A stretch of DNA of 32,000 bases from Planctomycetales bacterium (GCA_022646745.1 CP060262.1:3630001-3662000); one strand, 5' to 3'; positions 3,627-25,028 are shown, counted from the first letter of the stretch. Numbers and translations are program-made. Notes: generated by a model not told the origin, from the sequence alone.

Positions 3627-3665
3627 GTCTCTCCTCGCTATTGTGCTGTTGTCAGTTTGTCAGTG

Positions 3666-4445: not shown

Positions 4446-4446
4446 A

Positions 4447-5562
4447 TCAGAGGTTGCCCCTTCTCTCCTGCTCCTGCTCGATGGCCTCGAACAGCGCCTT
4501 GAAGTTACCCTTGCCAAAACCACGGCTGCCGCGGCGCTGGATGATCTCGAAGAACAGCGTCGGGCGGTCCTCCACCGGCTTCGTGAACAGCTGCAGCAGG
4601 TAGCCCTCGTCGTCACGGTCGATCAGCACGCGCAGTTCCTTCAGCACGTCCATTGGCTCCTTGATCTCCCCGATGCGCTCCGCGATGCCGTCGTAGTAGC
4701 TGCGGGGCACGTTGAGGAACTCCACGCCATTCTCGTAGAGCTTGGTCAGGGTCTCGATGATGTCGTCCGTCAGCAGGGCCACGTGCTGGGCACCGGCCCC
4801 CTCATAGAAGTCGATGTACTCCTCGATCTGGCTCTTCTTCTTGCCCTCGGCGGGCTCATTGATCGGGAACTTGATTGCGTATGTATTGTTGCTCATCACG
4901 ATGGACATCAGCGCGCTGTACTCAGTGGAAATGTCCTCGTCGTCAAAGGTGATGTAGCGGTGGAAGCCGAACACGTTCTCGTAGAACGCGGCCCACTCAT
5001 TCATGCGGCCCAGCTCAACGTTGCCAACGATGTGGTCGATGCGCAGGATGCCCGCGTCTCGCCCGGGGGCCTCGTTGACGGTGAATCCCGGCAGGAATGG
5101 CCCCTTGTAGTCGACGTGCTGGATCAGGCTGTGCACGGTGTCACCGTAGGTGCCGACAACAGCCCAGCGCACTGTGCCGTGCTCATCGGTCACGTCATGC
5201 GGCTCGACGATGCCCTTCGCTCCCTGGCTCGTGGCATAGGCGTAGGCCTTGTCGCAGTCGTCAACCTCGAAGGCGATGTCCTGCACACCGTCGCCATGCT
5301 TTGATAGGTGCTCGTTGATGCGGTGCCGTGAATTCAGAGGCGTCGTCAGCAGGAACACCGCATTGCCCTGGCGCAGGGCGTAGGATGTTGCCTCGCGGTT
5401 CTTCGTCTCGAGCCCGCTGTAGGCGAAGCGGCTGAAGCCGAAAGCGTTGCGGTAGTAGTAGTCAGCCTGCTTGGCGTTGCCCACCCAGAACTCGACGTGG
5501 TGCACCTGTTTCAGGCCGCAGGGGTTCTCGGTGCGTACCCTGTTCTCGCTAGTCACACTCAT
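4447..5562 (-). CDS. hppD: 4-hydroxyphenylpyruvate dioxygenase
   Basis: [98 protein letters not shown] are hallmark HPPD blocks. GGGAGG lies 6 nt upstream of ATG 5562. Confidence 0.92.
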
Positions 5563-5603
5563 GTAATGCCTCCCGTGACCGATGGGTCCTTGCATTTGAC
5601 ATG

Positions 5604-9195: not shown

Positions 9196-11166
<1,971 letters not shown>

Positions 11167-11325
11167 ATGACTATTCTAGCGAGCAGGAGCGTAACCCTAA
11201 ACCCGTGCTACGCACTGCCGATATTGAAATTGGGTTACAAATGAGAGCAGTCAGGTAAATTGCCGATTAGATCGATGGTCGGCAAACCGGGCAAGTGCTA
11301 GCGTTTGTCTTGTACAGGTTCAAAA

Positions 11326-11715
11326 ATGAGCCTTCAGGGATTTTGTATGAGTGCTATCAGGGATGTCATGCAGGTCAAGGCGAACCATATCCCGGCCGGG
11401 ATAGGTGCCTGCTACGTGCGTTACAGGCTGCCCGCTGAAATAGACCCTTTCCTGCCTGGACTGTTCAACGATGCCGTCACAGTCTTCAGCCCGATGCAGG
11501 AATGCCAGGGAGATTGCATCTGCCTGATAGAAGCATGCAGCCCGGGCCGCTACTCCGCCTGCTCCTTCCAGGGCAGCGTGGAGCTGGAGGTCTATTTCGA
11601 AGCCGGGAGCACGAGTCTGCCTGAGCTGATCAGTGGTTTCGATGCCCGAATCGAGTCCGTTGGGCTGGGCAGCGTAGAACACAGCAGGCGGATCGAAACC
11701 GTTACTGCGGACTGA
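11326..11715 (+). CDS. Hypothetical protein (strand call uncertain)
   Basis: The plus frame has higher third-position GC than the overlapping minus ORF 11320..11778. ATG starts are available at 11326 and 11347. The minus ORF only has a TTG start and would overlap the aminotransferase. No family recognised. Confidence 0.4.
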   Translation: MSLQGFCMSAIRDVMQVKANHIPAGIGACYVRYRLPAEIDPFLPGLFNDAVTVFSPMQECQGDCICLIEACSPGRYSACSFQGSVELEVYFEAGSTSLPELISGFDARIESVGLGSVEHSRRIETVTAD

Positions 11716-11757
11716 CGGGAAGTCCAGCCCCAGGCTGGCAGCGGCTAGAATGAGCGC

Positions 11758-13005
11758 ATGTCCCCAGCCCCGCAGCAATCCGGCACAGGCCCAGAGCTAA
11801 GCACACGCGCAAGCGTGATGCCTCGCAGCAGCATCCGCCGCCTTTTCACCTCCGCCTTTGCGCTGAGCAGTGAAGGGGTGAAGGTGTATGGCCTGCACAT
11901 CGGGGACCCTGACTTCGACATGCCGCAGCGCATTGCCGACGGAGTCAGTGACGCAATTGCCGCAGGCCATACTCACTATTCACCGATGGCCGGAATTCCG
12001 GCCCTGCGTGATGCGATTGTCAGTCACCGTCAGAGGCGGATGGGAATTGAAATCCCGCGAAACCGGGTGATCGTCAGCCAGGGAGCCACACAGGCGCTGA
12101 ACAGCAGCCTGCAGCTCTGTGTTGACAGCGGCCAGCGCGTGCTTTTCCCGATGATCTACTTCCCGAACTACATCCAGCAGAGCACACTGGCTGGTGTCGA
12201 AGTTGACCCCTACGAGCTGGATGAGAGCTTCCAGCCGGTGCTGGAAAAGCTGGAACAGCAGGTCACGCCCGACACGCGGGCGATGCTGATAAACACCCCG
12301 AGCAATCCGACCGGTGTGCTGTTTCCTCCAGAGACTGTCAGGGCCTTGTATGACTTTGCCCGTCGCCATAATCTCTGGGTCATTTCGGACGAGGCCTACA
12401 GTGACTTCGTCTACCGAGGGGAGTACCTCTCACCGTTGAGCATCGACTGGGAGTACCCGGAGGAAGAGCGCCGCGTGATCGCGGTTTACAGCTTCTCCAA
12501 GAGCTATGCAGCCACCGGCCTGCGCATGGGATACATGTTGGCACCGAATGACAGTGCAGCCTTCAGGCTGGAGCTGATGAATGAACCATTGACCGGTTCT
12601 CTGACAACCCCCCTCCAGTATGCGATGGTACGTGCGCTGGAAGTTGACGATACGGCTGAACGACGTGACGCACTGCTGGAGCGCTGGCAACTGGCAGGCG
12701 AACTGCTTGCTGGATGCGGGCTGAAGTTCGCCAGTCCGGATGGCGGGCTGTTCTACTTCATTGACATTTCCCCGACCGGGATGGATGGCGACACCTTCGC
12801 TGACAGGCTGCTGGCTGAGGAGCATGTTGCAGTAGTGCCCGGCAGTGGCTTTGGGCTGGTCGGCAGCCGGGATGCGGCCGGGACCCTGGCATTTACGCCA
12901 AATGCACTGGCAGCCCGTTGTGTCCGGGTGAGCTTTGCGGCACCGCGCGCGGACATGGAGGAAGGGGTGAAGCGCCTTGTTGCATTCATCCGGCGCAATT
13001 CATGA
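11758..13005 (+). CDS. Class I/II PLP-dependent aminotransferase (aspartate/aromatic type)
   Basis: GDPDFDMP, YSPMAGIPALR, NTPSNPTG, VISDEAY and SFSKSYAATGLRMGY (PLP lysine) are present. An alternative start at ATG 11818 (MPRSSIRRLF) gives a more typical length. Confidence 0.88.
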   Translation: MSPAPQQSGTGPELSTRASVMPRSSIRRLFTSAFALSSEGVKVYGLHIGDPDFDMPQRIADGVSDAIAAGHTHYSPMAGIPALRDAIVSHRQRRMGIEIPRNRVIVSQGATQALNSSLQLCVDSGQRVLFPMIYFPNYIQQSTLAGVEVDPYELDESFQPVLEKLEQQVTPDTRAMLINTPSNPTGVLFPPETVRALYDFARRHNLWVISDEAYSDFVYRGEYLSPLSIDWEYPEEERRVIAVYSFSKSYAATGLRMGYMLAPNDSAAFRLELMNEPLTGSLTTPLQYAMVRALEVDDTAERRDALLERWQLAGELLAGCGLKFASPDGGLFYFIDISPTGMDGDTFADRLLAEEHVAVVPGSGFGLVGSRDAAGTLAFTPNALAARCVRVSFAAPRADMEEGVKRLVAFIRRNS

Positions 13006-13107: not shown

Positions 13108-13314
13108 ATTCATCTTGACAACACTGTTCTTGATCATGGATTGAAACGTGATCAATTTCCCAAAGCACAGGCGTTGCTCACTCCATCTTCATCCTTGCCT
13201 AATAACCTTTCCTGAGCACCTTTAAACGCGCACGTCCGTAGTTCAAGCAGCTGGTCGGGCGCTGGAGGTGTTGCCATCCCGGCACAGGGAAATACTTTCT
13301 GTGAGGTATGTAGG

Positions 13315-14979
13315 ATGAAGAGGTTTGCACTCTCCCTGCTGGCCTGCATGGTCCTTGGATGCTCCGTTGCCTGGGCGGATTCCGCCTATGACGACGTGTC
13401 CACCGACCACTGGGCCTACAACGCCCTGGATTACCTGACGCACCGTGGTGTGCTGGAAGGTTATCCTGACGGGTTCTTCAAGGGTGACCGTACGCTGACG
13501 CGTTACGAGTTCGCCCAGGCGATCGCCCGTCTGCTCGACACTGTTGGTGAGGGATCGCCCGAAGACATCAACATCATGGCCGAAACCCTTCGCGCGGAAT
13601 TCTCTGACCAGCTCGCCAGCCTTGGCGGGCGGGTTGATGCCCTGGGCAACCAGGTCAACGACATGAACTCGACCATCTCGGATCTTGAAGGTAGTGTGGC
13701 GGACAACACCAACCGGATCGGCGACCTCGAAGGCAAGGTCAAGGACCTCAAGCCCGGACCGGAGTGGAAGGGAGAGCTGCGCTACCGCTGGCAGTTCGAG
13801 GACTGGGCGGACCGCAACCGCTTCCGCCAGCGCATCCGCTTCAAGCTGGGCTACAGCAAGCAGATCAACGACTGCGTCAAGCTGGCCTGGCAGTTCCAGA
13901 CCCAGACCGGCAACGATGCCACCTCCGGCAACCATACACTTGGCAACCAGGGACGGACAGCGGACATCTTCCTGCACGAAGCCTATGTCAAGTACAGCCC
14001 CGCCTGGTTCGGCTATTACCAGGACTGCGAGAAGCCCAAGCCTAACTGCGGTGGCTGCGGTGGCTGCAACGAATGTCAGAGCTGCGCCAAGTGCGAAGAG
14101 CTGAAGTGCGAGTGCAAGAGCAAGCTGGACATCTATGCCGGTATCTTCCCGAGCATCCTCACGGATGAGCATGAGATGGTGCTGGATGGTGACGTGAACC
14201 TGCAGGGTCTCGGCTTCGTTTACCACTTCAACCAGGACTTCCAGCTGACCAGTGTCGCCAGTGTCTTCGTCGAGAAGAACGGCAGTGACTACTTCGATGA
14301 CGACACCTACTTCTTCGCCACGGAACTGCGCCATGACGATTTCCTGATTGACGGCCTCGACGCCTGGGTGGGCAGCTACGGCTGGAAGGAAGAGAACCAG
14401 CTGCTTGCGGACTACTTCACGGGCAACGGCCTTGTTCTGGCTGACAACAGCGTGTTCGATTTCAACGGTGACGGCACCGTCAACGGCCTCGACCGCTTCA
14501 ACAGCAACTTCAGCGTCTACAAGGCCGGCCTGCAGTACACCTGGGACTGCGCCTGGGACGACAAGCCGTTCAAGATCTTCGGTGAGTACATGCTGGCCTG
14601 CGACAGCGACGCGGAGGACAACATCTCCATCGTCAACCAGGGCCTCGCCTCCCCGATCATCTATGAGACCAGCGACGATACCGGCTGGGTCGCAGGTGCG
14701 CAGTGGGGAGACAAGCCCAAGGACTGCGGCGACTGGTTCACCTTTGCCCGCTACAAGGAGATCGGGGCCAACACCATCGTCTCCGGCCTGGGTGATTCCG
14801 ATACTGGTGGCGCAAACCGCAACAGCTTCGAGTGGCACTGGGCATACATCTGGGCCCCGAACTGCACGCTCGGTATCACCTACATCCTGCAGAAGATGCA
14901 CAACGCGTATGGATTCCAGATTCCCAGCGGCCAGGACGACCGCCAGATCGTGCAGGTGGACTGGGTGTTCAAGTTCTAG
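13315..14979 (+). CDS. SLH-domain outer-membrane porin (OmpM/Slp-like: SLH + coiled-coil stalk + beta-barrel) with a Cys-rich insertion
   Basis: Signal peptide ...CSVAWA|D. SLH motif DHWAYNALDYL..GVLEGYPDGFFKGDRTLTRYEFAQAIARLL. Heptad-like stretch LGGRVDALGNQVNDMNSTISDLEGSVADNTNRIGDLEGKVKDL. Then amphipathic beta-strand patterning ending ...VQVDWVFKF (C-terminal Phe). GTGAGG RBS. Confidence 0.85.
   Translation: MKRFALSLLACMVLGCSVAWADSAYDDVSTDHWAYNALDYLTHRGVLEGYPDGFFKGDRTLTRYEFAQAIARLLDTVGEGSPEDINIMAETLRAEFSDQLASLGGRVDALGNQVNDMNSTISDLEGSVADNTNRIGDLEGKVKDLKPGPEWKGELRYRWQFEDWADRNRFRQRIRFKLGYSKQINDCVKLAWQFQTQTGNDATSGNHTLGNQGRTADIFLHEAYVKYSPAWFGYYQDCEKPKPNCGGCGGCNECQSCAKCEELKCECKSKLDIYAGIFPSILTDEHEMVLDGDVNLQGLGFVYHFNQDFQLTSVASVFVEKNGSDYFDDDTYFFATELRHDDFLIDGLDAWVGSYGWKEENQLLADYFTGNGLVLADNSVFDFNGDGTVNGLDRFNSNFSVYKAGLQYTWDCAWDDKPFKIFGEYMLACDSDAEDNISIVNQGLASPIIYETSDDTGWVAGAQWGDKPKDCGDWFTFARYKEIGANTIVSGLGDSDTGGANRNSFEWHWAYIWAPNCTLGITYILQKMHNAYGFQIPSGQDDRQIVQVDWVFKF
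14047..14064 (+). repeat. Perfect tandem 9-bp duplication TGCGGTGGC x2 (encodes CGGCGG) inside the porin Cys run
   Basis: Read directly: 14047..14055 equals 14056..14064, followed by TGC. Confidence 0.9.
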
Positions 14980-15024
14980 GCATAGGGAGCAAATCCTTCA
15001 CGCAACAGAACGTGACATTAGATG

Positions 15025-15053
15025 AGGGCGGGTCCTAGTGACTCGCCCTTTTT
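15025..15053 (+). terminator. Rho-independent terminator after the SLH-porin gene
   Basis: AGGGCGGGTC / GACTCGCCCT forms a 10-bp stem (one G-U) with loop CTAGT, followed by TTTTT. Confidence 0.7.
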
Positions 15054-15062
15054 CGATTGGAT

Positions 15063-15079
15063 TCACGATTAATTCGTGA
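15063..15079. promoter_or_regulatory. Near-perfect 17-bp palindrome TCACGATTAATTCGTGA; first of several TCACGA boxes
   Basis: 7 of 8 arm pairs match. More TCACGA(A/T)T copies lie at 15086..15093 and 15282..15289. All are in the 285-nt region upstream of the lipoprotein cytochrome gene. Confidence 0.35.
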
Positions 15080-15270
15080 GAATGGTCACGAATTTCGGTA
15101 CATTTCATCTGTTCCAAACTCTATCTCAGATATCACCTATTGAAAAAACCTCAGTTCTCTGCTATATACATACAGAACTGGCCTTCGGACTAATCCGAAG
15201 ATTTGGATCTGAACATTCGATGAGGATCAGGATCAGCGTCCAGACCGAAAGGCCAGCAGCACAAGTCACC

Positions 15271-15286
15271 TGTGAAATGGTTCACG
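15271..15286. promoter_or_regulatory. CRP/FNR-family-like site TGTGA-N6-TCACG
   Basis: TGTGAAATGGTTCACG matches 9 of 10 core positions of the TGTGA-N6-TCACA consensus. It ends 53 nt upstream of ATG 15339. Confidence 0.35.
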
Positions 15287-15338
15287 ATAAATGATCCACT
15301 CATTGGAGACCTGGGTGGCTTTTCGGCTAAGGAGGCCG

Positions 15339-17330
15339 ATGATGACAAGCAATGTTTCAACCGGGAGAGGAATTCTCCATCAGGCATTGGGAATCACAGC
15401 TGCCAGCCTCCTCGCGCTTGGCAGCTGCGCCAGCTCGCTTTCCGGCGGCGGGGGAAACCCCGATGACGGAGGCGGCGTAAACAAGGCTCCGGTGATCATC
15501 GGAAATACGATCGCTGCCAACAACCTCAGTCCTGAGACATCGCAGGTTGTGCAGTTCTCCGTATCCGCCAGTGATCCCGAAGGCAGTGCACTGACCTTCA
15601 GCTGGGATGACGGAAATGCCGCCGCCGGTACCTTCGACGGCACGGGCTCTTCCGTATTCTGGAGCACTGAGGAAGCCGGAACCTACACGATCTCCGTGAT
15701 CGCGTACGACCCGGAGCTGCTATCAGCCACTGCCAGCACTTCAACCACGGTGGCACAGGCTCCGGATCCGCCGGGACCAAACGATCCGCCGGTGTTCGAC
15801 CAGAACGGCATCCAGAAGGACGTCAGCTCCCCGGTCGCCGGACAGAAGATCATCTTCTCGGTAACCGCGTCTGACTCCGATGGCGACACGCTCAGCTTCG
15901 TCTGGCAGGATGACACCGGCCAGGACAACTTCTCCGACATCACCGTCGAGAACGGCACTTCCAAGGCCACTTGGTCTTATGACGAGGCCGGCAGCCATAC
16001 GATCACCGCAATTGCCAATGACGGCAAGGCCACCGGTACGTCAATGGTGAGCGCAGTCACAAGCCAGACCGCCACGGTGACCCTTGCGGCGATGCCGACG
16101 TCCTTCGACTTCAGCGGTGCGGAGCGTTGCGCCAACTGCCACTCCGATGTGTACGACCAGTGGGAGAACACCGGTCATGCCCACATCGAGGACACCATGC
16201 AGCAGATCGGCCGCGGCCGCCTTGAGAGCTGCCGTGAATGCCACACCGTCGGTTATGGCGAGGGTGGTTACATCAGTTACGACCTCACCCCGCAGTTTGC
16301 CAACGTCCAGTGCGAAAGCTGCCACGGCTCCGGCACCGGCCACCCGGCCAACGGTCCGCTGCCCGCATCCTTCGACCCGACCGACTCCTGTGGCCGTTGC
16401 CATACTGAGGAGCACCACCCGACATTCGAAGAGTGGCAGACCTCCGGACATGCTAACTTTGCCCTTGATGAGCACAACGCAACCGGTTCAAGCTGCGTCA
16501 AGTGCCACAACGGTGAATGGTTTGTCCGGATCCAGATCAACGGCGAGGATCCCCCTGCAGAAGACCTGGCTGAAGGCACCCATGTGACCTGCGCCACCTG
16601 CCATGATCCGCACGGCAACGGATTCGAGAACCAGCTGCGAGTCGATCCTACAGCAACGATGATCATCCCCTTTGATGACACCGAAGTTAATGCCGGTAAG
16701 GCCAACACCTGCCTTGCCTGCCACAATGGACGCCGTAACCGCGGTGACATGGAGAACACGATTGCCAAGGGTGGTCGTGGCTTCCATGCCAACAGCCAGG
16801 GCCCGATGATCTTCGGCGTTGGCGGTTTCGAATTCGATGGCTACGAGTATGACAAGTCGCATCCGCACAACTCCTGGAATGAGGAGAAGTGCATCACCTG
16901 TCACATGTACAGCAAGGAATTCGAGGACTTCGAGAACCCGGCCATCGTCGGCCACAGCTTCGCCCCGAAGATTGAATCCTGCAACGTCTGCCACACATTC
17001 GCCACCAGCGAAGAAATGGAAGCCTACAAGGAGGAATTCATCAACGGTACGCTGGCCATGCTGCTCGAGTTCGAGACTATCTGGCCTGCTGAGTGGAAGA
17101 CTGAGGATGCCGGTGTGTTCGACCTGAACAACAAGCCCTCCAGCTCTGATCCACCTAGCACCGACGGCCCGCCGCTGAATGACCCGATCGGCGACCAGTA
17201 TCGCCAGGCTTGGTGGAACTACGAGTACGTCCGAGAGGACGCGAGCAAGGGTGTCCACAACCCGGCTTACTCCCGCGGCCTGCTGCAGTCCGCCATCAAC
17301 AAGGTCAACGAACTCAACGCTCTGCCGTAA
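15339..17330 (+). CDS. Lipoprotein nonaheme c-type cytochrome with two N-terminal PKD/cadherin-like Ig repeats
   Basis: AAGGAGG lies 5 nt upstream of ATG 15339. Lipobox LLALGS|C is followed by a Gly-rich linker. Two about 95-aa repeats (VVQFSVSASDPEGSALTFSWDD / KIIFSVTASDSDGDTLSFVWQDD). Nine CXXCH motifs (CANCH, CRECH, CESCH, CGRCH, CVKCH, CATCH, CLACH, CITCH, CNVCH). Confidence 0.9.
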   Translation: MMTSNVSTGRGILHQALGITAASLLALGSCASSLSGGGGNPDDGGGVNKAPVIIGNTIAANNLSPETSQVVQFSVSASDPEGSALTFSWDDGNAAAGTFDGTGSSVFWSTEEAGTYTISVIAYDPELLSATASTSTTVAQAPDPPGPNDPPVFDQNGIQKDVSSPVAGQKIIFSVTASDSDGDTLSFVWQDDTGQDNFSDITVENGTSKATWSYDEAGSHTITAIANDGKATGTSMVSAVTSQTATVTLAAMPTSFDFSGAERCANCHSDVYDQWENTGHAHIEDTMQQIGRGRLESCRECHTVGYGEGGYISYDLTPQFANVQCESCHGSGTGHPANGPLPASFDPTDSCGRCHTEEHHPTFEEWQTSGHANFALDEHNATGSSCVKCHNGEWFVRIQINGEDPPAEDLAEGTHVTCATCHDPHGNGFENQLRVDPTATMIIPFDDTEVNAGKANTCLACHNGRRNRGDMENTIAKGGRGFHANSQGPMIFGVGGFEFDGYEYDKSHPHNSWNEEKCITCHMYSKEFEDFENPAIVGHSFAPKIESCNVCHTFATSEEMEAYKEEFINGTLAMLLEFETIWPAEWKTEDAGVFDLNNKPSSSDPPSTDGPPLNDPIGDQYRQAWWNYEYVREDASKGVHNPAYSRGLLQSAINKVNELNALP

Positions 17331-17348
17331 CAGCAGTACACCAAGAGA

Positions 17349-17377
17349 GGGCGCCCGCAATGGGCGCCCTTTTTTTT
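17349..17377 (+). terminator. Rho-independent terminator
   Basis: GGGCGCCC-GCAAT-GGGCGCCC perfect 8-bp GC stem followed by T8. Confidence 0.85.
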
Positions 17378-17533
17378 GCCTGGATCCCCTTGTATACAGG
17401 CTTGATGAAGTCTGACTAAAGACACAATTCCGATGCCCGATATCATAGATATATAGTAGGTTTGTGATAAACTTGGAGCCGGAGAACACTGTTTTCCACA
17501 GGGTAGAGGAAGAGAGAATATTGGAGGATCAGC

Positions 17534-18742
17534 ATGGCTGCGAGAAGGTCATTGATGACCATCGTGCTGATAGCCGTCGGAGTGCTGGGCTGGACTTACG
17601 TAGGACAGGCGCAGTTCTTTGATTCCCTTGAGGGAATGGAAGCTCCGGAGGATGTCAGCGGTGTTGACTGTGCAATGTGTCATGGAAGCGCGGCTCAGGA
17701 AGTCACCTTCCCGCATGCTCCGGCCTTCGAGGGCAAGTGCGACACGTGCCACCAGACAACTGGTGTCGGGGGCCATGGCGGGCTCGTCAGTGAGACCCGC
17801 TCACTGTGCCTCAATTGCCACCAGGACAAGTCAGAGCACTACCCCGCACTCACCTGCTGGACGAGCAATTGCCACAGCGACATGCACGGCAGCAACCTCG
17901 ATCCCTTCCTCAACCCCAGCCGCCAGGAGGACTACCCCGGCTTTGCCGCCTCCACGGAAGGTGCGCAGTACGTCGGTACTGAGACCTGCCTGAGCTGCCA
18001 CCAGGGCCATCGCCGGGAATGGCAGAAGTCCATGCACAGCCTGACCGACCACGGTACCCGCCCGATCAGCGAGCGTGGCTGCGAAAGCTGCCACGGACCG
18101 GGCAGCAACCACTGGGGCCGCCGCGCCGGCATCGGTGTGTTCAGCATGGCAAGCTCCAAGGAAATTGACGACACCTGCCTTGAGTGCCACAAGTCCGACA
18201 CCTACGTACCGGACTACAAGGGCACCCGTCACGTGAAGGAAGGCATGTCCTGCATCGAGTGCCATGACCCGCACATGCAGACCAACAAGCACAACCTGCG
18301 CAAGACCCCCAATTCAATGTGCCTGACCTGCCACGAGTCCACCCGCGTGGACTTCGCCAAGTTCAGCCACCACCCGCTTGACAACGAAGACCCGCGCATG
18401 GGCCTGATGTGCATTGATTGCCACAATCCGCACGGCGGCGAGGGGCACGAGATGCTCAAGCAGGTGAAGGACGACCTCTGCTTCGAATGCCACGCTGACA
18501 AGCAGGGCCCGTTCATCTTCGAGCACGCGGGATACGACCCGGCCATGGGCAACGGCTGCTTCACCTGCCACAGTGCACACGGCAGCAGCAACCCTGACCT
18601 GCTGAACTTCTCCGGACGGGGTACCTGCATGGAATGCCATACGGACCGTGCCAACCACTTCCCCGCACAGAACTGCTGGACCTCGGGATGCCATTCCGAC
18701 CACCACGGTTCCAACACTGATTTCTTCTTCTTCGGGAACTAG
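17534..18742 (+). CDS. Periplasmic multiheme c-type cytochrome, 14 predicted heme sites (12 CXXCH + 2 CX4CH)
   Basis: GGAGGA RBS. Signal peptide ...YVGQA|QFF. Motifs CAMCH, CDTCH, CLNCH, CWTSNCH, CLSCH, CESCH, CLECH, CIECH, CLTCH, CIDCH, CFECH, CFTCH, CMECH, CWTSGCH. The CH..HGSN endings recall DmsE/MtrA-type cytochromes. Confidence 0.9.
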   Translation: MAARRSLMTIVLIAVGVLGWTYVGQAQFFDSLEGMEAPEDVSGVDCAMCHGSAAQEVTFPHAPAFEGKCDTCHQTTGVGGHGGLVSETRSLCLNCHQDKSEHYPALTCWTSNCHSDMHGSNLDPFLNPSRQEDYPGFAASTEGAQYVGTETCLSCHQGHRREWQKSMHSLTDHGTRPISERGCESCHGPGSNHWGRRAGIGVFSMASSKEIDDTCLECHKSDTYVPDYKGTRHVKEGMSCIECHDPHMQTNKHNLRKTPNSMCLTCHESTRVDFAKFSHHPLDNEDPRMGLMCIDCHNPHGGEGHEMLKQVKDDLCFECHADKQGPFIFEHAGYDPAMGNGCFTCHSAHGSSNPDLLNFSGRGTCMECHTDRANHFPAQNCWTSGCHSDHHGSNTDFFFFGN

Positions 18743-18755
18743 GAGGTAGCAAGCG

Positions 18756-20462
18756 ATGCGCAACGGACTGTTAACTGCCCTCCTCGTCTTCTCCATGCTT
18801 GTCATGCTCAGCGGCGTGGCCCTCGCGGGCGATGCCTGCACCGGCTGCAACGCTGGCTGCGCTGACTGCTGTGAGTTCTGGGCCGAAGACGGTCTTGGCA
18901 ACTATGTCGAGATCGGCGGCACCAGCACGGAAGTGAATGACAACGAGGACTCCTTCAACCAGTACGGGCTCTACCCGGAGGACTGGTACACCAACGGCCG
19001 CTACAACAGCGTCGACATGGGCTGCGTGCTCAACCGCTTCGAGGCCCGCTGGCAGGATGTCAGCAGCGACAGCGGACGCGGCTGGGGCCGCCTGACGAGC
19101 TGGCCGCTCGTGCTGCAGGGTGACAGCACCCTGATCAGCGGCCGCGCCTGGAACGCCTTCGGCGCGGAGCCGGCACTGGTGCCCTACGACTGGTCACATG
19201 ACCAGTACGGCCTGCGGATCCACCACCGTGAGCTTGACAACATGGCGCTCAACTACGAGCGCATCGAGCTCAACCATGACACGGCCAGCCCGCTGCATGA
19301 CCTCAAGGTGGAGCGCCTCGGCTACCGCTGGAACCTGGACATCATCGGCATCGACACGATGGCCCAGGTCACCCAGCGTGCCACCACGATCGACACCACC
19401 CTGCCCGGCGCCTCCGGCAGCATTGACCATACCCGCGTCAAGCTGGACGCCAGGCTGAGCGATGAGCTGAAGGCCTACGGCCGGATCAACTACAAGCAGT
19501 ACCAGTACGATGACCAGCCGGATCCCGAGTTCTCCAGCGCGGACCTGACACTGGGCATGCGCTACGACCCGAGCTGCGACTGGTCCTTCAACGCGGAGTA
19601 CAGCAGCAGCGAGGCCGCCGATGACAACATCGTCAGCAGCCACGTTCAGAGCTCCAGCGAGTACGGCTTCTCGGCGGCCTGGTACCCCGGCTGTGGCAAC
19701 AGCTACGAAGCCGGCTACAAGCTGCGGCAGGTGGACTACGCCAAGCTGGACATGCAGGACAGCTCAGTGTTCAACCTGCTGCGTGGCTCCTCCGTGGTGA
19801 CACCGGCCCAGGTCGCTCCCGCGGTGACGATCCTCGCGCCTGAGTACGACACTGTCTGGTTCGACATGAAGCAGAACCTCTCGGACCGACTGAAGTTCCG
19901 TACGCACATCGACTACGAGTCGGGCAGTACCCCGGGCACTGAGCTCGTCAGTGTCGGCAGCACCAGCCTGTTCTTCGACAAGCAGCTGTCCCGCACCCAC
20001 GGCCTGTCCTGGACGGTGGACAATCACAACTCCGTTGACTTCAACATGTACGGCCAGGAATCCCGCAATGGTGGCCGTGACAGCCAGACCAACCTGACCT
20101 ATGCCGAGGGAGTCTGGATGCACCGCATCGACAGCTGCAGCCAGTTCGCTCTGTCCCTGCGTGACAGCCGCTCTGAGCTCGATATGCCGGGCATTGATGA
20201 CGAGTACAGCACCGACGACAAGACCTACGCCGCCACCTACGGGCAGCAGCTTGAGGACCATGACTACTCGCTGAACTTCGCCATGAGCGACGGCAGCGGG
20301 GCTGAGAACTACACCCAGACCAGTGCCGGGGCTGAGGTCCGCTTCAAGCGCCTCGGGCCGCTGGGCCTGCGCCTGGACTGGTACCGCAGGCTGTATGACA
20401 ACTACCCGGGCCTTGAATCAGATGCAGTCTCAGTTGCGGTAAATTACAGGATTAGCTTCTGA
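18756..20462 (+). CDS. Outer-membrane beta-barrel protein, candidate cytochrome-sheathing porin (MtrB/PioB-like role), with N-terminal Cys cluster
   Basis: The AGGAGG RBS overlaps the stop of the upstream cytochrome, and ATG lies 13 nt after that stop. Signal peptide ...GVALA|GD. CTGCNAGCADCC follows directly after cleavage. Alternating hydrophobic beta-strand pattern throughout, Tyr/Asp/Ser/Asn-rich loops, and a C-terminal ...VAVNYRISF. Confidence 0.75.
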   Translation: MRNGLLTALLVFSMLVMLSGVALAGDACTGCNAGCADCCEFWAEDGLGNYVEIGGTSTEVNDNEDSFNQYGLYPEDWYTNGRYNSVDMGCVLNRFEARWQDVSSDSGRGWGRLTSWPLVLQGDSTLISGRAWNAFGAEPALVPYDWSHDQYGLRIHHRELDNMALNYERIELNHDTASPLHDLKVERLGYRWNLDIIGIDTMAQVTQRATTIDTTLPGASGSIDHTRVKLDARLSDELKAYGRINYKQYQYDDQPDPEFSSADLTLGMRYDPSCDWSFNAEYSSSEAADDNIVSSHVQSSSEYGFSAAWYPGCGNSYEAGYKLRQVDYAKLDMQDSSVFNLLRGSSVVTPAQVAPAVTILAPEYDTVWFDMKQNLSDRLKFRTHIDYESGSTPGTELVSVGSTSLFFDKQLSRTHGLSWTVDNHNSVDFNMYGQESRNGGRDSQTNLTYAEGVWMHRIDSCSQFALSLRDSRSELDMPGIDDEYSTDDKTYAATYGQQLEDHDYSLNFAMSDGSGAENYTQTSAGAEVRFKRLGPLGLRLDWYRRLYDNYPGLESDAVSVAVNYRISF

Positions 20463-20518
20463 TCTGGGGTATTATCAAGTAAGGCAGACATATCGAATAT
20501 CTCATGGAGCCTAATAGG

Positions 20519-20538
20519 CTGGAATCCAAGGATTCCAG
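20519..20538. promoter_or_regulatory. Inverted repeat CTGGAATCC-AA-GGATTCCAG (9-bp arms, 2-nt spacer)
   Basis: Checked pairwise. It lies between the barrel stop (20462) and the tetraheme ATG (20568). The spacer is too short for a full RNA hairpin, so a dimeric-protein site or a short stem-loop is possible. Confidence 0.35.
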
Positions 20539-20567
20539 GAGAGTTGCAAGCACCAAGGAGGTGTAGC

Positions 20568-21077
20568 ATGTTCAGGAAGTATGGCTGGGTAATCGCTGTG
20601 TTCATCGTGGCGATGTTCGCCTGGGGCGCCTTCAGCGCAGAGCAGGCAAGCGGTGCCGATGCCAACGAGTATGTCGGTGACAACGAGAAGAAGTGCGGCA
20701 TGTGCCACAAGGAGCAGGTCGCAGCATGGAAGAAGTGGCCGATGGCCAAGACCTGGGACACACTGCAGGCCAGCAAGGACAAGAAGGACAGCTGCATCCC
20801 CTGCCATGTGACCGGCTTTGGCAAGCCCGGCGGCTTCGTCAGCATCGAGAAGACCCCCAAGCTCGTCAACGTGCAGTGCGAGGCCTGCCATGGCCCCGCC
20901 AAGGACCACCTTGCCGCCCCGCTCAACGATGTTGAGAAGAAGCGCAACACGATGACCAAGCCGACGGAGGCGAACTGCAAGACCTGCCACAACAAGGACT
21001 CCCCGCACTACAAGGAGTTCAAGTACGCTGATGCCGTCAAGGCACTGGCGGATCACAAGCCCAAGCCGAAGAAGTAA
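20568..21077 (+). CDS. Tetraheme c-type cytochrome (c554-like module)
   Basis: AAGGAGG lies 7 nt upstream of ATG 20568. N-terminal hydrophobic segment WVIAVFIVAMFAWGAFSA. Motifs CGMCH, CIPCH, CEACH, CKTCH. Lys-rich tail. Confidence 0.88.
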   Translation: MFRKYGWVIAVFIVAMFAWGAFSAEQASGADANEYVGDNEKKCGMCHKEQVAAWKKWPMAKTWDTLQASKDKKDSCIPCHVTGFGKPGGFVSIEKTPKLVNVQCEACHGPAKDHLAAPLNDVEKKRNTMTKPTEANCKTCHNKDSPHYKEFKYADAVKALADHKPKPKK

Positions 21078-21112
21078 GGGCATGCCCGCAGGGCATACAG
21101 ACAGACCATCCT

Positions 21113-21146
21113 ACGGGCGTCCCTCCATGGGGCGCCCGTTTCATTT
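21113..21146 (+). terminator. Rho-independent terminator after the tetraheme gene
   Basis: ACGGGCGTCCC-TCCAT-GGGGCGCCCGT forms an 11-bp stem (one G-U) followed by TTCATTT. Confidence 0.65.
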
Positions 21147-21177
21147 GTAATCTGCCTCAGCAGAGGCAAGAGTGACC

Positions 21178-22332
21178 ATGTCCAAGCAGAGTTCAACTGA
21201 AAAGCAGTCCCGCTGCCCGGTGTGCCGGGCGAGCAACCAGCCCGCCGCGCGCTTCTGCGAGCAGTGCGGTGCCGTGATGAATGCCGGCCCGGGTGGCCAG
21301 TCCGCTCCGGCTGCCAACCCGCTGCGCATCGTGATGCCGATCGTGATCGTGCTGGCGCTCGTCGGCGGCATGGTGATGCTGCAGCGCCAGCCCAAGCAGG
21401 GTGCTGATGCCATGAACCAGGCACTCGGCGGCAACCCGCACAGCCTGCCCGGCGCGGATGGCAATGCCGGCGGCGATGTCAATTCGATGGTCGAGCAGTT
21501 CAAGGCGCGGCTGGACAAGGACCCGCTGGACACCGCGGCACTGAACGAGCTGTACACTATCTACAGCAGCATCAGTGAAGCTGACAAGGTCACGCCCTAT
21601 ACGCAGGCGGCCGTCACAGCCTGGATGAAGCAGCCGGCGGACAGCCGGGAGGCCAAGCTGATTGCAGATGTGGCCGCACTGTCGATGCAGAACGGTGACC
21701 TGCTGGGGGCGGCTGCCTCGTTTGAGGCCTACAGCCAGGCCGAGCCGGAGAACTACTCCGTGATGGCAACCGTCGGCGACCTGCACCTGCAGCTCAGCCG
21801 TGTGGAGGCGGCAGGCAGCGAAGTGGCCGGCCGCGAGGCGAAGAAGGCCGAGACCTGGTACCAGCGCTTCCTTGACAACGCCAGCCCGGAAAGCCACCCT
21901 GAGCTGTACTGGGACGTGCTCGTCAACCAGGCCAGCGCGATGATGGCCCAGATGCCCGCCGAAGGTGCTGACTTCAGCCAGGTGCTGGCCAACCTCGAGC
22001 GCGCCACGACGGAGAACCCGGATTACTGGCTGGGCTGGCACAGCTACGGCATGGCCCTCAAGGCCGCCGGCAGGAACGATGATGCGATCGCGGCACTGGC
22101 CGCTGCCAAGCAGCACGGCAGCCCGCGTGAGACCTGGGAGTCCGAGCAGCAGCTGGCGATGCTGGAGAACCGCGAGCCTGACCCGGGTGACTTCGACCCG
22201 ACCGACCCGCATGCGGGGATGGACATGAGCGGAGCTGGGGGTGGTGGAAACACACCGCACGGCATGCCCAACCCGCACCGCCAGGGTGACGAAGTACCGG
22301 AGAACCCGCACAACATCGGCACCCAGGGCTAG
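21178..22332 (+). CDS. Zinc-ribbon / single-TM / TPR-like periplasmic domain protein with His/Met/Pro-rich tail
   Basis: CPVC-x12-CEQC zinc ribbon. TM segment LRIVMPIVIVLALVGGMVMLQ. Helical-repeat region resembling TPR. Tail PHAGMDMSGAGGGGNTPHGMPNPH..NPHN. High third-position GC on the plus frame. GTG 21172 is an alternative start. Confidence 0.75.
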   Translation: MSKQSSTEKQSRCPVCRASNQPAARFCEQCGAVMNAGPGGQSAPAANPLRIVMPIVIVLALVGGMVMLQRQPKQGADAMNQALGGNPHSLPGADGNAGGDVNSMVEQFKARLDKDPLDTAALNELYTIYSSISEADKVTPYTQAAVTAWMKQPADSREAKLIADVAALSMQNGDLLGAAASFEAYSQAEPENYSVMATVGDLHLQLSRVEAAGSEVAGREAKKAETWYQRFLDNASPESHPELYWDVLVNQASAMMAQMPAEGADFSQVLANLERATTENPDYWLGWHSYGMALKAAGRNDDAIAALAAAKQHGSPRETWESEQQLAMLENREPDPGDFDPTDPHAGMDMSGAGGGGNTPHGMPNPHRQGDEVPENPHNIGTQG

Positions 22333-22451
22333 CAGTCGCAGACAGCAGCATGCGTTTAACTCCCCCTTCCCGCTCAGCGATTAACTGATTGAGGAAGAGC
22401 AATCCCGCATGGGTGCCCGGAACCCCCGTGCGAGGGAAACTGGAGAAAGAC

Positions 22452-23777
22452 ATGCGGCTTATGCTGACAACGCTTGCTGCGATCCTGCTGCTTTGCAATG
22501 CGGCGCGAGCGGATGCGCCAGAGCTGGACTTTGTGGACCCTACCGATCAGGCATACAAATTTCTAGGCTCACTATTGCAGGCAGGTTACTTGCCGGATTA
22601 CCCGTCCAATTACCTTGAAGATCACCCTGTACTTACTCGCTATGAATTCGCCCAGGCGACGATCTGTTGTTTGGACAACTTCATACATCAAGATGATTCC
22701 AATGCAGAAATTCTTGCGGAGTCACTACGTGCAAACTTCAATACCGAGTTGATCAACTGGACGGGATTGAGCTCCCTGTACGGCCCGGTAGCTCCTCTTA
22801 GTGAAACGGAGATGCCCGACAAACGGCCAGAGATTGGCGCGCGCCGTGCTGATCAGCTTTTCCCCTCTGATCACTGGGCTAACCAGGCTATCGGAATTCT
22901 CGCCGACAACTGTCGAGCCAACACACGAACTAAGTTAAAGGACAAAATGCTGCTGCAACCCTGGACTTACTCCGAGACTGCAGCTGCAGTAATAGATTTG
23001 GCAAACAATCTGTCAGCAGACTCCGACCCGGCCCTGATTCCGCTGGTCGACTCCCTTGTGTGCTTATTACAGCCGGACATCAGATATCTGTTATCGGTCA
23101 GAGCAGACAAAAATCTGTACTACACAGACTGGGCAATAAGGCACTCAGTGAGTCTTGAGGAATGCCGCAAGCATGATCCATATTTTGACCTGCCGCCAGA
23201 GCCTGTCTGGATGTTGAGCCAGGAAATTCCGGTGGACAGTTTCCTATATCCCTTGCTTGATTACGCACAGAATGCGGGATTCCTGCCAAACTTCGTTCCG
23301 GGTTACTGGCAGAATCGCAACGGATCGCAAACATTTGAGGAATTGTTTCTGGCAAATGACATCCTGAAACTGACAATACACGAGGACGGTTCAGCCATTG
23401 ATAGGCTGGTTTCAAACGTTCTAGTTGAAGCGCAAAGGAATCTGGAAAGCTCTGAAAATTTCGATGACCGAAGCAACGTATGTTTTATAGGAGACATGCG
23501 TAAGTATCGCAATAGTGGAATAACTGATCTGTGGGACTCCTGGCCCGGCGAAGCCCTGTTAAAACTGCAAGAGCGTGGCTACCTTACGAATCTTCCGGTG
23601 AGCAGCTATCACTCGGTCACGGGGAAAACGCGGCTGGAAATGTCAATTGTAGTCGGTAAACTGCTCAGTGAGCTCAACGCTGATTCACCTTTGGACATCA
23701 AAATTTTGGGAGAAACCCTCAGGCGCGAGTACAGCGACCTTCTGCCGGACTGGGCTCCGCTTTCGGAGCAAGATTAG
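22452..23777 (+). CDS. Secreted protein built from about four degenerate SLH-like units, with no barrel
   Basis: Signal peptide MRLMLTTLAAILLLCNAARA. Units contain ...LTRYEFAQATI..., SDHWANQAIGIL..., ...LEMSIVVGKLL.... Trailing segments AESLRANFNTEL and GETLRREYSDLL parallel the porin AETLRAEFSDQL. Low GC. Confidence 0.7.
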   Translation: MRLMLTTLAAILLLCNAARADAPELDFVDPTDQAYKFLGSLLQAGYLPDYPSNYLEDHPVLTRYEFAQATICCLDNFIHQDDSNAEILAESLRANFNTELINWTGLSSLYGPVAPLSETEMPDKRPEIGARRADQLFPSDHWANQAIGILADNCRANTRTKLKDKMLLQPWTYSETAAAVIDLANNLSADSDPALIPLVDSLVCLLQPDIRYLLSVRADKNLYYTDWAIRHSVSLEECRKHDPYFDLPPEPVWMLSQEIPVDSFLYPLLDYAQNAGFLPNFVPGYWQNRNGSQTFEELFLANDILKLTIHEDGSAIDRLVSNVLVEAQRNLESSENFDDRSNVCFIGDMRKYRNSGITDLWDSWPGEALLKLQERGYLTNLPVSSYHSVTGKTRLEMSIVVGKLLSELNADSPLDIKILGETLRREYSDLLPDWAPLSEQD

Positions 23778-23802
23778 ATGAAAGTTATTCAGAGAAACGA
23801 GA

Positions 23803-24480
23803 ATGATTGACATGAAACAATTTATCTCAAAAGTTTCTTTTCTTCTCTTTGCTGCGATCCTGCTGCTTGGCAATGCCGCCATCGCCGGCAGTGCCGATGA
23901 CCAAGTAGGCAGGGATCATTGGGCTTACGCCCTATTCGACTACTTGGTCAACGACCCGAACGTCGAATGGAAAGTTGTCCAACCAGGTGATTTCTTCAGC
24001 AGGGAAGACCGATTGCTGACAAGGTATGAATTTGCTTCTGCAGCTCTAGTCTTTGGATATTCTATTTTTGAAAATGGCTCTGACTCACAAAAGATGCTTC
24101 TGCACATCTGCATGAATGAATTCAAAGACCAAATTGTCAGTATGGGGCACACAGACCATTTCGTCAGCCTGGAGATATCCAACCTGGGCATGAACAACGA
24201 GATCCAGGGATCAATGCGTACCGGCGCATCCGCCGATGTCCCCCCCGAGCACTGGGCATACGACGCGGTAGAGTTCTTCATTGACAGTGGAACCCTGGAA
24301 GGGTACCCGGCTGGCTTCTACGACCGCAGCAGGATCCTGACCCCCTATGAATTCGCCCAGGCAATCGCTCGACTGTTGGACATTTTGAGTGATCAGGAAA
24401 ATCCATATCCATATGAAGTACAGATTGCCGAGTGCCTGCGAGTCGAATTCAGTGACCAGCTGGATTCAATCAGCAGCTAG
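23803..24480 (+). CDS. Secreted two-SLH-domain protein, with no barrel
   Basis: Signal peptide ...FAAILLLGNAAIAG. DHWAYALFDYL...LTRYEFASAAL and EHWAYDAVEFF..GTLEGYPAGFYDRSRILTPYEFAQAIARLLD plus AECLRVEFSDQL are close to the N-terminus of the 13315 porin. Confidence 0.8.
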   Translation: MIDMKQFISKVSFLLFAAILLLGNAAIAGSADDQVGRDHWAYALFDYLVNDPNVEWKVVQPGDFFSREDRLLTRYEFASAALVFGYSIFENGSDSQKMLLHICMNEFKDQIVSMGHTDHFVSLEISNLGMNNEIQGSMRTGASADVPPEHWAYDAVEFFIDSGTLEGYPAGFYDRSRILTPYEFAQAIARLLDILSDQENPYPYEVQIAECLRVEFSDQLDSISS

Positions 24481-24579
24481 TTGGATTGTGCTTTACGGAA
24501 TTACTCTTCTGACGCGAAAGCCAGAGCTGATGACCTTGCAGGTACAGTCTGCAACTAGCCGGTACTCCCCTCTGCCTGA

Positions 24580-24801
24580 TCAGACCTCAAACAGCTGCCT
24601 TGGCAATCCACTAAGACGGATGATTCCTGAAAGAGTTCCCGTCTTGAGCTCCTTGTGGTCTGGTACTGGAACAGTCCTGCTTGAATGCTCTTGTTGCAGT
24701 TGCATGACAATATGGCTGCCTTTCCGGCGGACTTCCCGGAATCCATGATCAGCAAGTATGCGGCAGACTTCAGCTCCACTGAACCTGCCCAGACGGCCCA
24801 T
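24580..24801 (-). CDS. hicA: HicA-family type II toxin (mRNA interferase)
   Basis: 73 aa. FSGAEVCRILADHGF..VRRKGSHIVM...VPVPDHKELKTGTLSGIIR is the HicA pattern. Its ATG overlaps the hicB stop (ATGA at 24799..24803, minus strand). Confidence 0.85.
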   Translation of the reverse strand: MGRLGRFSGAEVCRILADHGFREVRRKGSHIVMQLQQEHSSRTVPVPDHKELKTGTLSGIIRLSGLPRQLFEV

Positions 24802-25028
24802 CAGTGCGGGCTTACTTCAAAGGTACTGATCTCTGTGTCAAACGGAATACGCTGCTTCAGCTCTTCTTCGCTGGCGCATTCAAGGTACAGTTCAACCGCT
24901 TCTTGCAGGTTGGCCTTGGCCACAGCAACAGTATTGCCCTGGCTGACTACATCCAGCTCCGGACACAGGGCCACGTACATGTCTTCCTCTCGGCTTATCA
25001 CTGCGGTCAGTTTGATGGGGATGGACAT
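24801..25028 (-). CDS. hicB: HicB-like antitoxin (UPF0150 fold only, no appended DNA-binding domain)
   Basis: 75 aa. EEDMYVALCPELDVVSQGNTVAVAKANLQEAVELYLE is the HicB N-terminal domain pattern. Confidence 0.8.
   Translation of the reverse strand: MSIPIKLTAVISREEDMYVALCPELDVVSQGNTVAVAKANLQEAVELYLECASEEELKQRIPFDTEISTFEVSPH

Follow-up and report, generated by a model that had tools for sequence, protein, structure and literature searches.

Does a run of genes for multiheme cytochromes and β-barrel proteins, found in a 32,000-nucleotide stretch of DNA from Planctomycetales bacterium (CP060262.1:3630001-3662000, GCA_022646745.1; hereafter the window), encode an electron route across the outer membrane and, if so, to which known system is it related? 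MtrAB-type conduits are the best understood electron route across the bacterial outer membrane, and annotation relies on MtrB/PioB models and decaheme models. A sequence-only reading of the window had proposed an undescribed trans-outer-membrane conduit with an mtrC-mtrA-mtrB-like gene order, analogous to known systems and built from a different parts list. Open reading frame (ORF) listing, motif counts and Pfam searches recovered the genes that it had named, at the same positions and all on the plus strand (Table 1). We find that the region probably encodes a divergent MtrAB-type porin-cytochrome conduit across the outer membrane, with an elongated heme wire, a c554-like shuttle, an OcwA-like lipoprotein that replaces MtrC, and a TPR accessory protein. 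This reading is carried by the family to which the wire belongs, by the predicted fold of the barrel, and by the coupling of their genes and their co-conservation.

The 402-residue cytochrome (the wire) contains 12 CXXCH motifs and two CX4CH motifs (CWTSNCH and CWTSGCH), so that the 14 hemes previously ascribed to it are reached only if both non-canonical motifs are counted. It scores 200.5 bits against TIGR03508, the NCBIfam model of the DmsE family of decaheme cytochromes (curated cutoff 192.2), with residues 148-395 aligning to positions 1-256 of the 258 in the model, and it matches MtrA, chain A of the solved Mtr complex (6R2Q_A), with E = 2e-33. These matches place the wire in the DmsE/MtrA family. 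Rather than the ten hemes of MtrA it has an intact decaheme core (residues ~145-395) plus four, and the extra four-heme module (residues ~33-125) arose by internal duplication of the one at the C-terminus (42% identity between the two, E = 3e-24). The C-terminus of MtrA faces outward and its N-terminus projects ~20 Å into the periplasm (PMC7198977); if the wire lies likewise, its added module would extend it at the periplasmic end.

The ~400-residue form of the wire is common to ~34 database clusters. When 32 members were scanned, 30 had 12 CXXCH motifs, and both CX4CH motifs (CWxxxCH) were present in 30, the remaining two having one each. The next relatives are ordinary decaheme cytochromes (~290-370 residues, ~32-42% identity). 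We considered CX4CH as a hallmark of the 14-heme family and rejected it, as the last heme site is CX4CH in 59 of the 88 nearest decaheme relatives; the motif is therefore a clade feature and no novelty. Most of the wires scanned (homologues P0027-P0058) also carry an aromatic C-terminal tail, HGSNxxFFFFxx, after the last heme, commonly FFFF. If oriented as in MtrA, this tail would lie at the outer mouth of the barrel, where it might serve as a docking or electron-transfer element.

The 568-residue protein encoded directly downstream of the wire has a signal peptide, a Cys-rich N-terminus (CTGCNAGCADCC) and the C-terminal sequence YRISF, and lacks a heme motif. No Pfam or NCBIfam family matches it, the NCBIfam MtrB models included, and none of the 19 members of its family matches any Pfam model at E <= 10, MtrB_PioB included. 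AlphaFold2 supplied with the 19-sequence family alignment nonetheless bore out the earlier prediction of a β-barrel (pLDDT 81.4, pTM 0.66), with 25 long strands and a short N-terminal one, ~26 in total. Comparison of this model with the PDB by Foldseek placed MtrB (6R2Q_B) at the top of 715 matches (E = 1.5e-8, TM-scores 0.53 and 0.48), the next matches (SlpA, OprC and LptD) being ~1000-fold weaker. MtrB has 26 strands (PMC7198977), and on the predicted structure the barrel, with ~26 strands, has the MtrB fold while being an orphan by sequence. Since the wire scores over the DmsE/MtrA cutoff and aligns with MtrA, and since the barrel has the MtrB fold, we regard the core of the system as a divergent homologue of MtrAB; for the core, the notion of an analogous system with a different parts list does not hold.

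The failure of sequence models to recognise the barrel is not peculiar to it. The barrel that adjoins a classical decaheme gene in an Acidobacteriia metagenome-assembled genome (MAG; locus L016) is likewise unmatched in Pfam, and therefore failure of the MtrB_PioB model says little outside Proteobacteria. The family profile of the window barrel scores 4.7 bits over ~60 residues of this Acidobacteriia barrel, a score too low for us to treat the two as one family. The family of the window barrel is very small: a word-indexed search of 5.8 billion proteins gave 7 clusters, an exhaustive profile search of 1.84 billion proteins gave 19 representatives, and the family occurs in 4 of 185,579 species genomes. 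The Cys-rich stretch of the barrel (residues 26-42) lies at the mature N-terminus, and all seven of the closest homologues keep its C28, C31 and C38; the SLH porin encoded upstream has an internal Cys-rich stretch of its own (residues ~238-270, CEKPKPNCGGCGGCNECQSCAKCEELKCECK). Both may be metal-binding sites or disulfide clusters.

That no sequence family can be assigned to the barrel, and that the Foldseek matches also include LptD, TonB-dependent transporters and SlpA with E ~ 1e-5, would fit an ordinary large diffusion or transport channel, with the multiheme proteins acting purely as periplasmic carriers and no transmembrane wire being formed. We consider this highly improbable, because MtrB is the clear top structural match, because an MtrA-family gene adjoins the barrel gene, with translational coupling, in every relative, and because a remote relative of the barrel in which a monoheme domain is fused to the barrel (P0026) points to a redox role for the family. 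P0026 (675 residues) matches the family profile with E = 1.3e-8; its N-terminal domain is a monoheme cytochrome c (CGVCH), and its sequence suggests a Cyc2-like architecture that arose within an MtrB-like barrel family. In this fusion of a monoheme cytochrome to a porin it resembles Cyc2, whereas the window barrel has ~26 strands and no heme motif. The barrel of Cyc2 has 16 strands. A different N-terminal addition, an Ala/Glu/Ser-rich extension of ~150-180 residues, is present in the 713-residue barrel of locus L019 (GCA_020849855.1, 11201-13342), and P0008 is of the same length and type.

The genes for the wire and the barrel are closely coupled: the TAG stop codon of the former overlaps the AGGAGG ribosome-binding site of the latter, whose ATG follows 13 nucleotides on, just as the sequence-only reading had described. 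Strong T-tailed hairpins lie 3′ of the SLH porin, nine-heme and tetraheme genes, and four transcription units are therefore likely. The core operon probably comprises the genes for the 402-residue cytochrome, the barrel and the tetraheme protein (17534-21077), and the nine-heme gene and the TPR gene are likely separate units. The hairpin that precedes the core operon has a folding energy of -25.2 kcal/mol (z = -4.2), with an equally good fold in 0 of 200 shuffles, and the one that ends it has -24 kcal/mol (z = -5.6). A promoter scan was uninformative, giving 3 sites against 3.5 expected by chance.

Table 1 Positions of the cluster genes and predicted terminators in the window.
Feature	Coordinates	Strand	Evidence
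SLH porin, 554 aa	13315-14979	+	ORF listing, Pfam SLH and Porin_5, PDB matches
Predicted intrinsic-terminator hairpin after the SLH porin gene	15024-15050	+	Terminator scan and folding
Nine-heme OcwA-like lipoprotein cytochrome, 679 aa	15291-17330	+	Motif count, Pfam, PDB matches
Predicted intrinsic-terminator hairpin between the nine-heme gene and the core operon	17344-17377	+	13-bp G+C-rich stem, T8 tail
14-heme MtrA/DmsE-family periplasmic cytochrome (wire), 402 aa	17534-18742	+	TIGR03508, MtrA alignment
Predicted ~26-strand outer-membrane β-barrel, 568 aa	18756-20462	+	AlphaFold2 model, Foldseek
Secreted c554-type tetraheme cytochrome, 177 aa	20544-21077	+	Motif count, Pfam, PDB
Predicted intrinsic-terminator hairpin at the end of the core operon	21113-21139	+	Terminator scan and folding
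Zn-ribbon/TM/TPR protein, 386 aa	21172-22332	+	Pfam; one hydrophobic helix

Comparison of the window proteins with related loci by tblastn, together with the gene tables of those loci, revealed that the wire and barrel genes are adjacent in every relative found (L001-L015 and L017-L020). The tetraheme gene lies directly 3′ of the barrel gene in L001-L003, L007-L014 and L019 and on the same island in L020; homologues of the TPR protein (26-59% identity) are encoded beside or near the core in L007-L009, L011-L015 and L017; and the nine-heme gene lies beside the core in L007-L009 (64% identity) and L011-L014, and on the same island in L020 (40%). A block of five genes (nine-heme, wire, barrel, tetraheme and TPR) is kept in L007-L009 and L011-L014, down to identities of 50% for the barrel and 37% for the TPR protein. 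The SLH porin, which had been listed with these genes, behaves differently: it is found at the cluster only in L011, L012 and L014, close and fully syntenic genomes in which the porins are ~91-93% identical, and is absent from the cluster in L007, L008, L015, L017 and L019. Conservation of the neighbourhood, which had been proposed as a check, thus holds in the nearer relatives for the wire, barrel, tetraheme, nine-heme and TPR genes and fails for the porin.

The more distant loci place the system among respiratory genes. L020, which has homologues of the nine-heme protein, the tetraheme protein (50% identity), the barrel (38%) and the wire, also encodes on the same island an 11-heme protein of NapC/NirT type, a CbcL-like fusion of cytochrome b to a 7-heme domain, a 27-heme lipoprotein and an 8-heme protein. 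L015 and L017 contain multiheme cytochromes and Ni_hydr_CYTB, with NrfD and a 4Fe-4S protein in the former and ResB/CcsA in the latter, and in L021 a more distant nine-heme homologue is flanked by NapC/NirT, a CbcL-like fusion, a c554-like protein and ResB/CcsA. Judged by gene content, L015, L017, L020 and L021 show the surroundings of a respiratory route of extracellular electron transfer. With the coupled and adjacent wire-barrel pair, the structural match to MtrB, and NapC/NirT proteins and cytochrome-b-fused multihemes near relatives, the proposal of a trans-outer-membrane conduit is very probably correct. An ArsR/HTH_5-type regulator gene, absent from the cluster in the window, lies directly beside the wire-barrel pair in L015 (13079-13543), L017 (13425-13892) and L020 (12060-12470) and may be a dedicated regulator in those lineages.

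What lies at the outer face of the conduit is suggested by the nine-heme protein. It has exactly nine CXXCH motifs, a lipobox (LALGSC) and two N-terminal Ig-like repeats (PKD, 33 bits; Big_9, 25.4 bits; two stretches each, above cutoff), as had been claimed for it, and its true start is likely M18 (15342), as in the 662-residue database entry P0147. Pfam Cytochrome_C554 matches at 43 bits, above cutoff, and PF02335, which describes the NrfA helices, matches at 22 bits here and with E <= 1e-5 in homologues; PF22113 matches at 44.6 bits but is common to all three cytochromes of the cluster and so is generic. TIGR03507, the model of the OmcA/MtrC family, gave no match to the 679-residue protein. 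The best match of the single sequence in the PDB is OcwA (6I5B, E = 6e-9), and a family profile built from 26 sequences matched OcwA at 5e-37, 6QVM (which we take to be OmhA, a surface cytochrome of Carboxydothermus) at 3e-30, the C-terminal regions of NrfA proteins at ~5e-17, c554 at 6e-15, MtrC at 3e-8 and HAO at 2e-3. OcwA remained the top match across five segments, the C-terminal helices included. These comparisons indicate a cytochrome of OcwA type and not of MtrC/OmcA type, and the mtrC-mtrA-mtrB-like order of the genes consequently has no mirror in their homology, the first cytochrome being OcwA/NrfA-like.

OcwA of Thermincola is a nine-heme terminal reductase of the cell surface in which hemes 1-4 are c554-like and hemes 5-9 NrfA-like, followed by a C-terminal helical bundle (PMC6703420). 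The protein encoded in the window is like OcwA of T. potens (6I5B), and 6QVM, in its nine CXXCH motifs, c554-like hemes 1-4, NrfA-like C-terminal helices and HHP motif, and by this association it is implicated in extracellular electron transfer. Unlike OcwA, which belongs to a Gram-positive cell wall, it is a diderm lipoprotein, of low identity to OcwA, with two N-terminal Ig-like domains and a link to MtrAB. The lipobox with Ig-like domains behind it is suggestive of a surface location, though only suggestive, and the Ig-like domains together with the Gly/Ser/Asp-rich linker after the lipobox look like those of a surface-displayed protein. The majority consensus of the family alignment has GC at the lipobox position, and the lipobox of the L020 homologue is LLSTGC. 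The heme domain has more than 2,700 relatives in the databases; those with a named source come mostly from Ca. Eisenbacteria and Krumholzibacteria, with one from Verrucomicrobia.

The NrfA-like half of this protein raises the alternative that it is a lipid-anchored periplasmic enzyme of the NrfA/octaheme family that reduces nitrite, hydroxylamine or a sulfur oxyanion and is a mere neighbour of the MtrAB-like pair. In its favour, the C-terminal region matches the NrfA helices both in Pfam and through the family profile, the HHP motif (H375-H376) that aligns with that of OcwA is kept, the gene has its own terminator, and one homologue (P0171) bears the annotation of a nitrite reductase subunit; in OcwA itself two of the hemes are penta-coordinate, and nitrite is reduced, though slowly (PMC6703420). 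Enzymes of these families are marked by active-site heme motifs, namely CXXCK in NrfA, CX15CH in MccA and the P460 context in HAO. The nine-heme protein lacks these: the 679 residues contain no CXXCK and no CX11-17CH. In OcwA-type cytochromes the penta-coordinate hemes, 2 and 5, each have a distal His-His motif; the residues equivalent to the heme-2 pocket of OcwA did not align reliably, and the family alignment shows, against nine hemes, just eight histidines outside the heme motifs that are fully or almost fully conserved. We judge the reductase explanation decidedly unlikely, as OcwA leads NrfA by a wide margin in the profile search, as the gene lies beside the conduit genes in L007-L009 and on the same island in L020, as neither nrfH nor nrfBCD was found beside it in the window, and as its two Ig-like domains and linker look surface-displayed.

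The two remaining members of the block match their earlier descriptions. The tetraheme cytochrome has four CXXCH motifs and a signal peptide, its likely start being at 20568, and it matches Pfam Cytochrome_C554 at 69 bits and 1BVB in the PDB at 1.6e-10. The last protein matches TPR_14 and TPR_19 above cutoff and Zn_Ribbon_1 at 23.7 bits, just below the cutoff of 25. It consists of a cytoplasmic Zn-ribbon, a single transmembrane (TM) helix and a periplasmic TPR region; a search for structural relatives gave none that were informative.

In the MtrAB-type conduit that we favour, the barrel would sheathe the 14-heme wire as MtrB sheathes MtrA, and the extra four-heme module would extend the chain of hemes at its periplasmic end, perhaps by 30 Å if the 80 Å spanned by the ten hemes of MtrA is extrapolated. 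The tetraheme protein would connect the wire, at its periplasmic end, with quinol dehydrogenases of the inner membrane whose genes would lie elsewhere in the genome; this is the role played in Shewanella by STC/CctA. The separately transcribed nine-heme lipoprotein, held on two Ig-like domains, would be the partner at the outer face, in the place of MtrC, and the Zn-ribbon/TM/TPR protein may help maturation or assembly of the complex.

The likely habitat of the host bears on how such a conduit would be used. The barrel is 99% identical to a copy in the MAG "bacterium isolate UBP7 HKST-UBA01" (JAGRNR010000007.1), and exact copies occur in assemblies labelled WANG18-1. The HKST-UBA01 label and its HKST prefix appear to match a metagenome study that followed saline activated sludge at Shatin, Hong Kong, over nine years and reported three UBP7 MAGs (PMC8495973). 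A relative with 54% identity lies on a contig named with "Bacteria_4484_113". UBP7 as currently defined has small genomes of 36-53% GC (PMC11382960); since the GC content of the window is ~60%, 4484-113 may be the better placement. Genes upstream of the cluster (2472-5595 and 9196-13005) resemble a tyrosine/phenylalanine degradation set, with a 4-hydroxyphenylpyruvate-dioxygenase-like protein, a weak match to the homogentisate dioxygenase N-terminus, a fumarylacetoacetate hydrolase, an acetoacetyl-CoA-synthetase-like AMP-binding enzyme and an aminotransferase. Because dioxygenases of these types use O2, the set suggests that the host respires oxygen or at least tolerates it.

The direction of electron flow is not readable from the sequence, a caveat of the sequence-only reading that holds. 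We lean toward outward reduction, of extracellular Fe(III), Mn(IV), humics or electrodes, over uptake from Fe(II), because the nine-heme protein has its closest characterised relatives among terminal reductases. The same hardware could run inward, as a MtoAB/PioAB-like uptake system that draws electrons from extracellular Fe(II), Mn(II) or a cathode into the respiratory chain, and to this we give a small though appreciable chance. MtrA-family conduits run both ways in known organisms, as MtoAB and PioAB illustrate; the aerated tank and the dioxygenase-family genes in the window would suit an inward flow, as would a three-domain multicopper oxidase gene (14042-15565) that adjoins the L019 cluster on the opposite strand and the L019 core itself, which, as in MtoAB and PioAB, has no large outer cytochrome alongside. 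The conserved nine-heme partner, however, is closest to OcwA, the NapC/NirT-like and CbcL-like neighbours in relatives are typical of outward pathways, and no gene for Cyc2, for a cbb3 oxidase or for carbon fixation turned up close to any of the clusters.

Several points weigh against the conduit as we have reconstructed it. The structural match to MtrB is a moderate one (a TM-score of 0.53 with 9% identity) obtained from a 19-sequence alignment; a 7-sequence alignment had given an unusable model (pLDDT 27), which was mended by distant relatives from the exhaustive hidden Markov model search; and the barrel family profile matches no PDB sequence at E <= 10, so that no sequence similarity to MtrB/PioB is detectable. 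The rest of the window encodes neither an inner-membrane quinol dehydrogenase nor cytochrome-maturation (ccm) genes, as had already been remarked. The nine-heme gene has its own terminator, and the clusters of L015, L017, L018 and L019 lack it; the nine-heme protein is therefore not an obligatory partner. Moreover, since OcwA has two penta-coordinate, open-coordination hemes (2 and 5) and low nitrite and hydroxylamine reductase activity (PMC6703420), a catalytic role for the nine-heme protein is possible. Finally, the organism comes from an aerated sludge tank (PMC8495973) and the window contains dioxygenase-family catabolic genes, pointing to aerobic growth, so that anaerobic metal respiration would be facultative.

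The SLH porin, which had been presented as a part of the system, proved to be what it was called and not to belong. It matches Pfam SLH (34.7 bits) and Porin_5 (37.9 bits), both above cutoff, the OmpM-type structure 8BYS (E = 6.6e-21, residues 2-119) and Deinococcus SlpA (8e-15), and NCBIfam por_somb at 66 bits, below the cutoff of 100. An SLH domain is followed by a coiled-coil stalk and a β-barrel ending in VDWVFKF, as expected of an outer-membrane tether porin of OmpM/SlpA type. On the evidence of the related loci it is a genomic neighbour and a marker of the envelope type, not a conserved part of the conduit. A 554-residue protein encoded downstream of the L008 cluster was considered as a relocated SLH porin and rejected, as it shows no similarity.

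To our knowledge, OcwA-type surface cytochromes are known experimentally only from monoderm Firmicutes. The combination found here may represent an evolutionary bridge, in which an OcwA-type surface cytochrome serves as the outer partner of an MtrAB-type conduit in a diderm whose outer membrane is tethered by OmpM-type SLH porins, the 14-heme wire is adapted to the periplasm of such a cell, and the TPR protein is a dedicated assembly factor, though we think this speculation unlikely to hold. If it is true, the surface cytochromes that serve extracellular electron transfer in Gram-positive bacteria could have begun as outer parts of diderm conduits and been retained when the outer membrane was lost.

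With regard to known systems, the cluster shares with MtrCAB, MtrAB, MtoAB, PioAB and DmsEF a DmsE/MtrA-family wire, a ~26-strand barrel and a cytochrome gene directly 5′ of the barrel gene. It differs from MtrAB in that the wire has 14 hemes rather than ten, the C-terminal four-heme module having been copied to the N-terminus, and two CX4CH sites, and in that the barrel is shorter (568 residues, the MtrB chain having 649) and shows no sequence similarity to MtrB/PioB that our searches could detect. Unlike MtrCAB, it has an outer cytochrome of nine hemes rather than ten that is not of MtrC/OmcA type, an added Zn-ribbon/TPR protein, and a host that belongs to an uncultured candidate phylum with an OmpM-type envelope. 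The OmaB/OmbB/OmcB and ExtABCD complexes of Geobacter likewise combine a periplasmic multiheme protein, a porin-like protein and an outer lipoprotein cytochrome, and relatives of the window cluster have CbcL-like partners; there is, however, no specific homology, the GSU2203 decaheme model scoring 187.8 bits against a cutoff of 325 and the ExtKL model being marginal.

The claim that the system was undescribed overstated its novelty, as the principle and the homology of the core are already known, and divergent Mtr-like clusters with MtrA-like and OcwA-like cytochromes were reported in 2026. According to the available part of a preprint on peat Acidobacteriota and Verrucomicrobiota (bioRxiv 10.64898/2026.05.27.727921), clusters EET1-4 of uncultured Gram-negative bacteria encode syntenic porin, MtrA-like and OcwA-like proteins with 8-13 hemes, and, like the cluster described here, resemble Mtr in structure with low sequence identity to characterised components. 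Unlike it, they come from other phyla and are described in that part without a 14-heme duplicated wire or a Zn-ribbon/TPR accessory, a distinction between descriptions and not between sequences. Our literature searches (UBP7 with multiheme cytochromes; 14-heme MtrA) found no paper describing this cluster. What appears to be new is the 14-heme duplicated wire, the sequence-orphan barrel family with its fixed set of accessory proteins, and their occurrence in a candidate phylum with an OmpM-type envelope.

The finding leaves the known principle unchanged. Because the barrel has diverged beyond sequence recognition, a whole sub-family goes undetected in searches with MtrB/PioB and decaheme models, and its members provide marker sequences for wider surveys of extracellular electron transfer. 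The wire offers a natural experiment in which a heme chain was lengthened by duplication of a module, and the cluster mixes parts otherwise known from Gram-negative (MtrAB) and Gram-positive (OcwA) systems.

The remaining genes of the window are concerned with aromatic amino-acid catabolism, an acetoacetyl-CoA-synthetase-like enzyme, an aminotransferase, polysaccharide deacetylase and similar functions. Downstream of the cluster (22389-24480) are genes for two further proteins with SLH-like repeats (462 and 225 residues), and GC content dips to 0.49-0.51 at 23001-25000 from ~0.6 elsewhere. The 462-residue protein is only 31% identical to its L011 counterpart, whereas the flanking genes are 95-99% identical, and this interval looks like a hypervariable or replaced surface-protein cassette. 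The window is also rich in long antisense ORFs, such as one of 552 residues on the minus strand at 13243-14901. In two loci from Logan assemblies, L009 (3639-4826) and L010, the stored gene calls show two antisense ORFs (89 and 249 residues) in place of the 14-heme gene, and tblastn finds there an intact 14-heme homologue (71% identity, 99% coverage); the stored calls are an artefact of gene prediction in high-GC DNA, through which automated surveys would miss the conduit.

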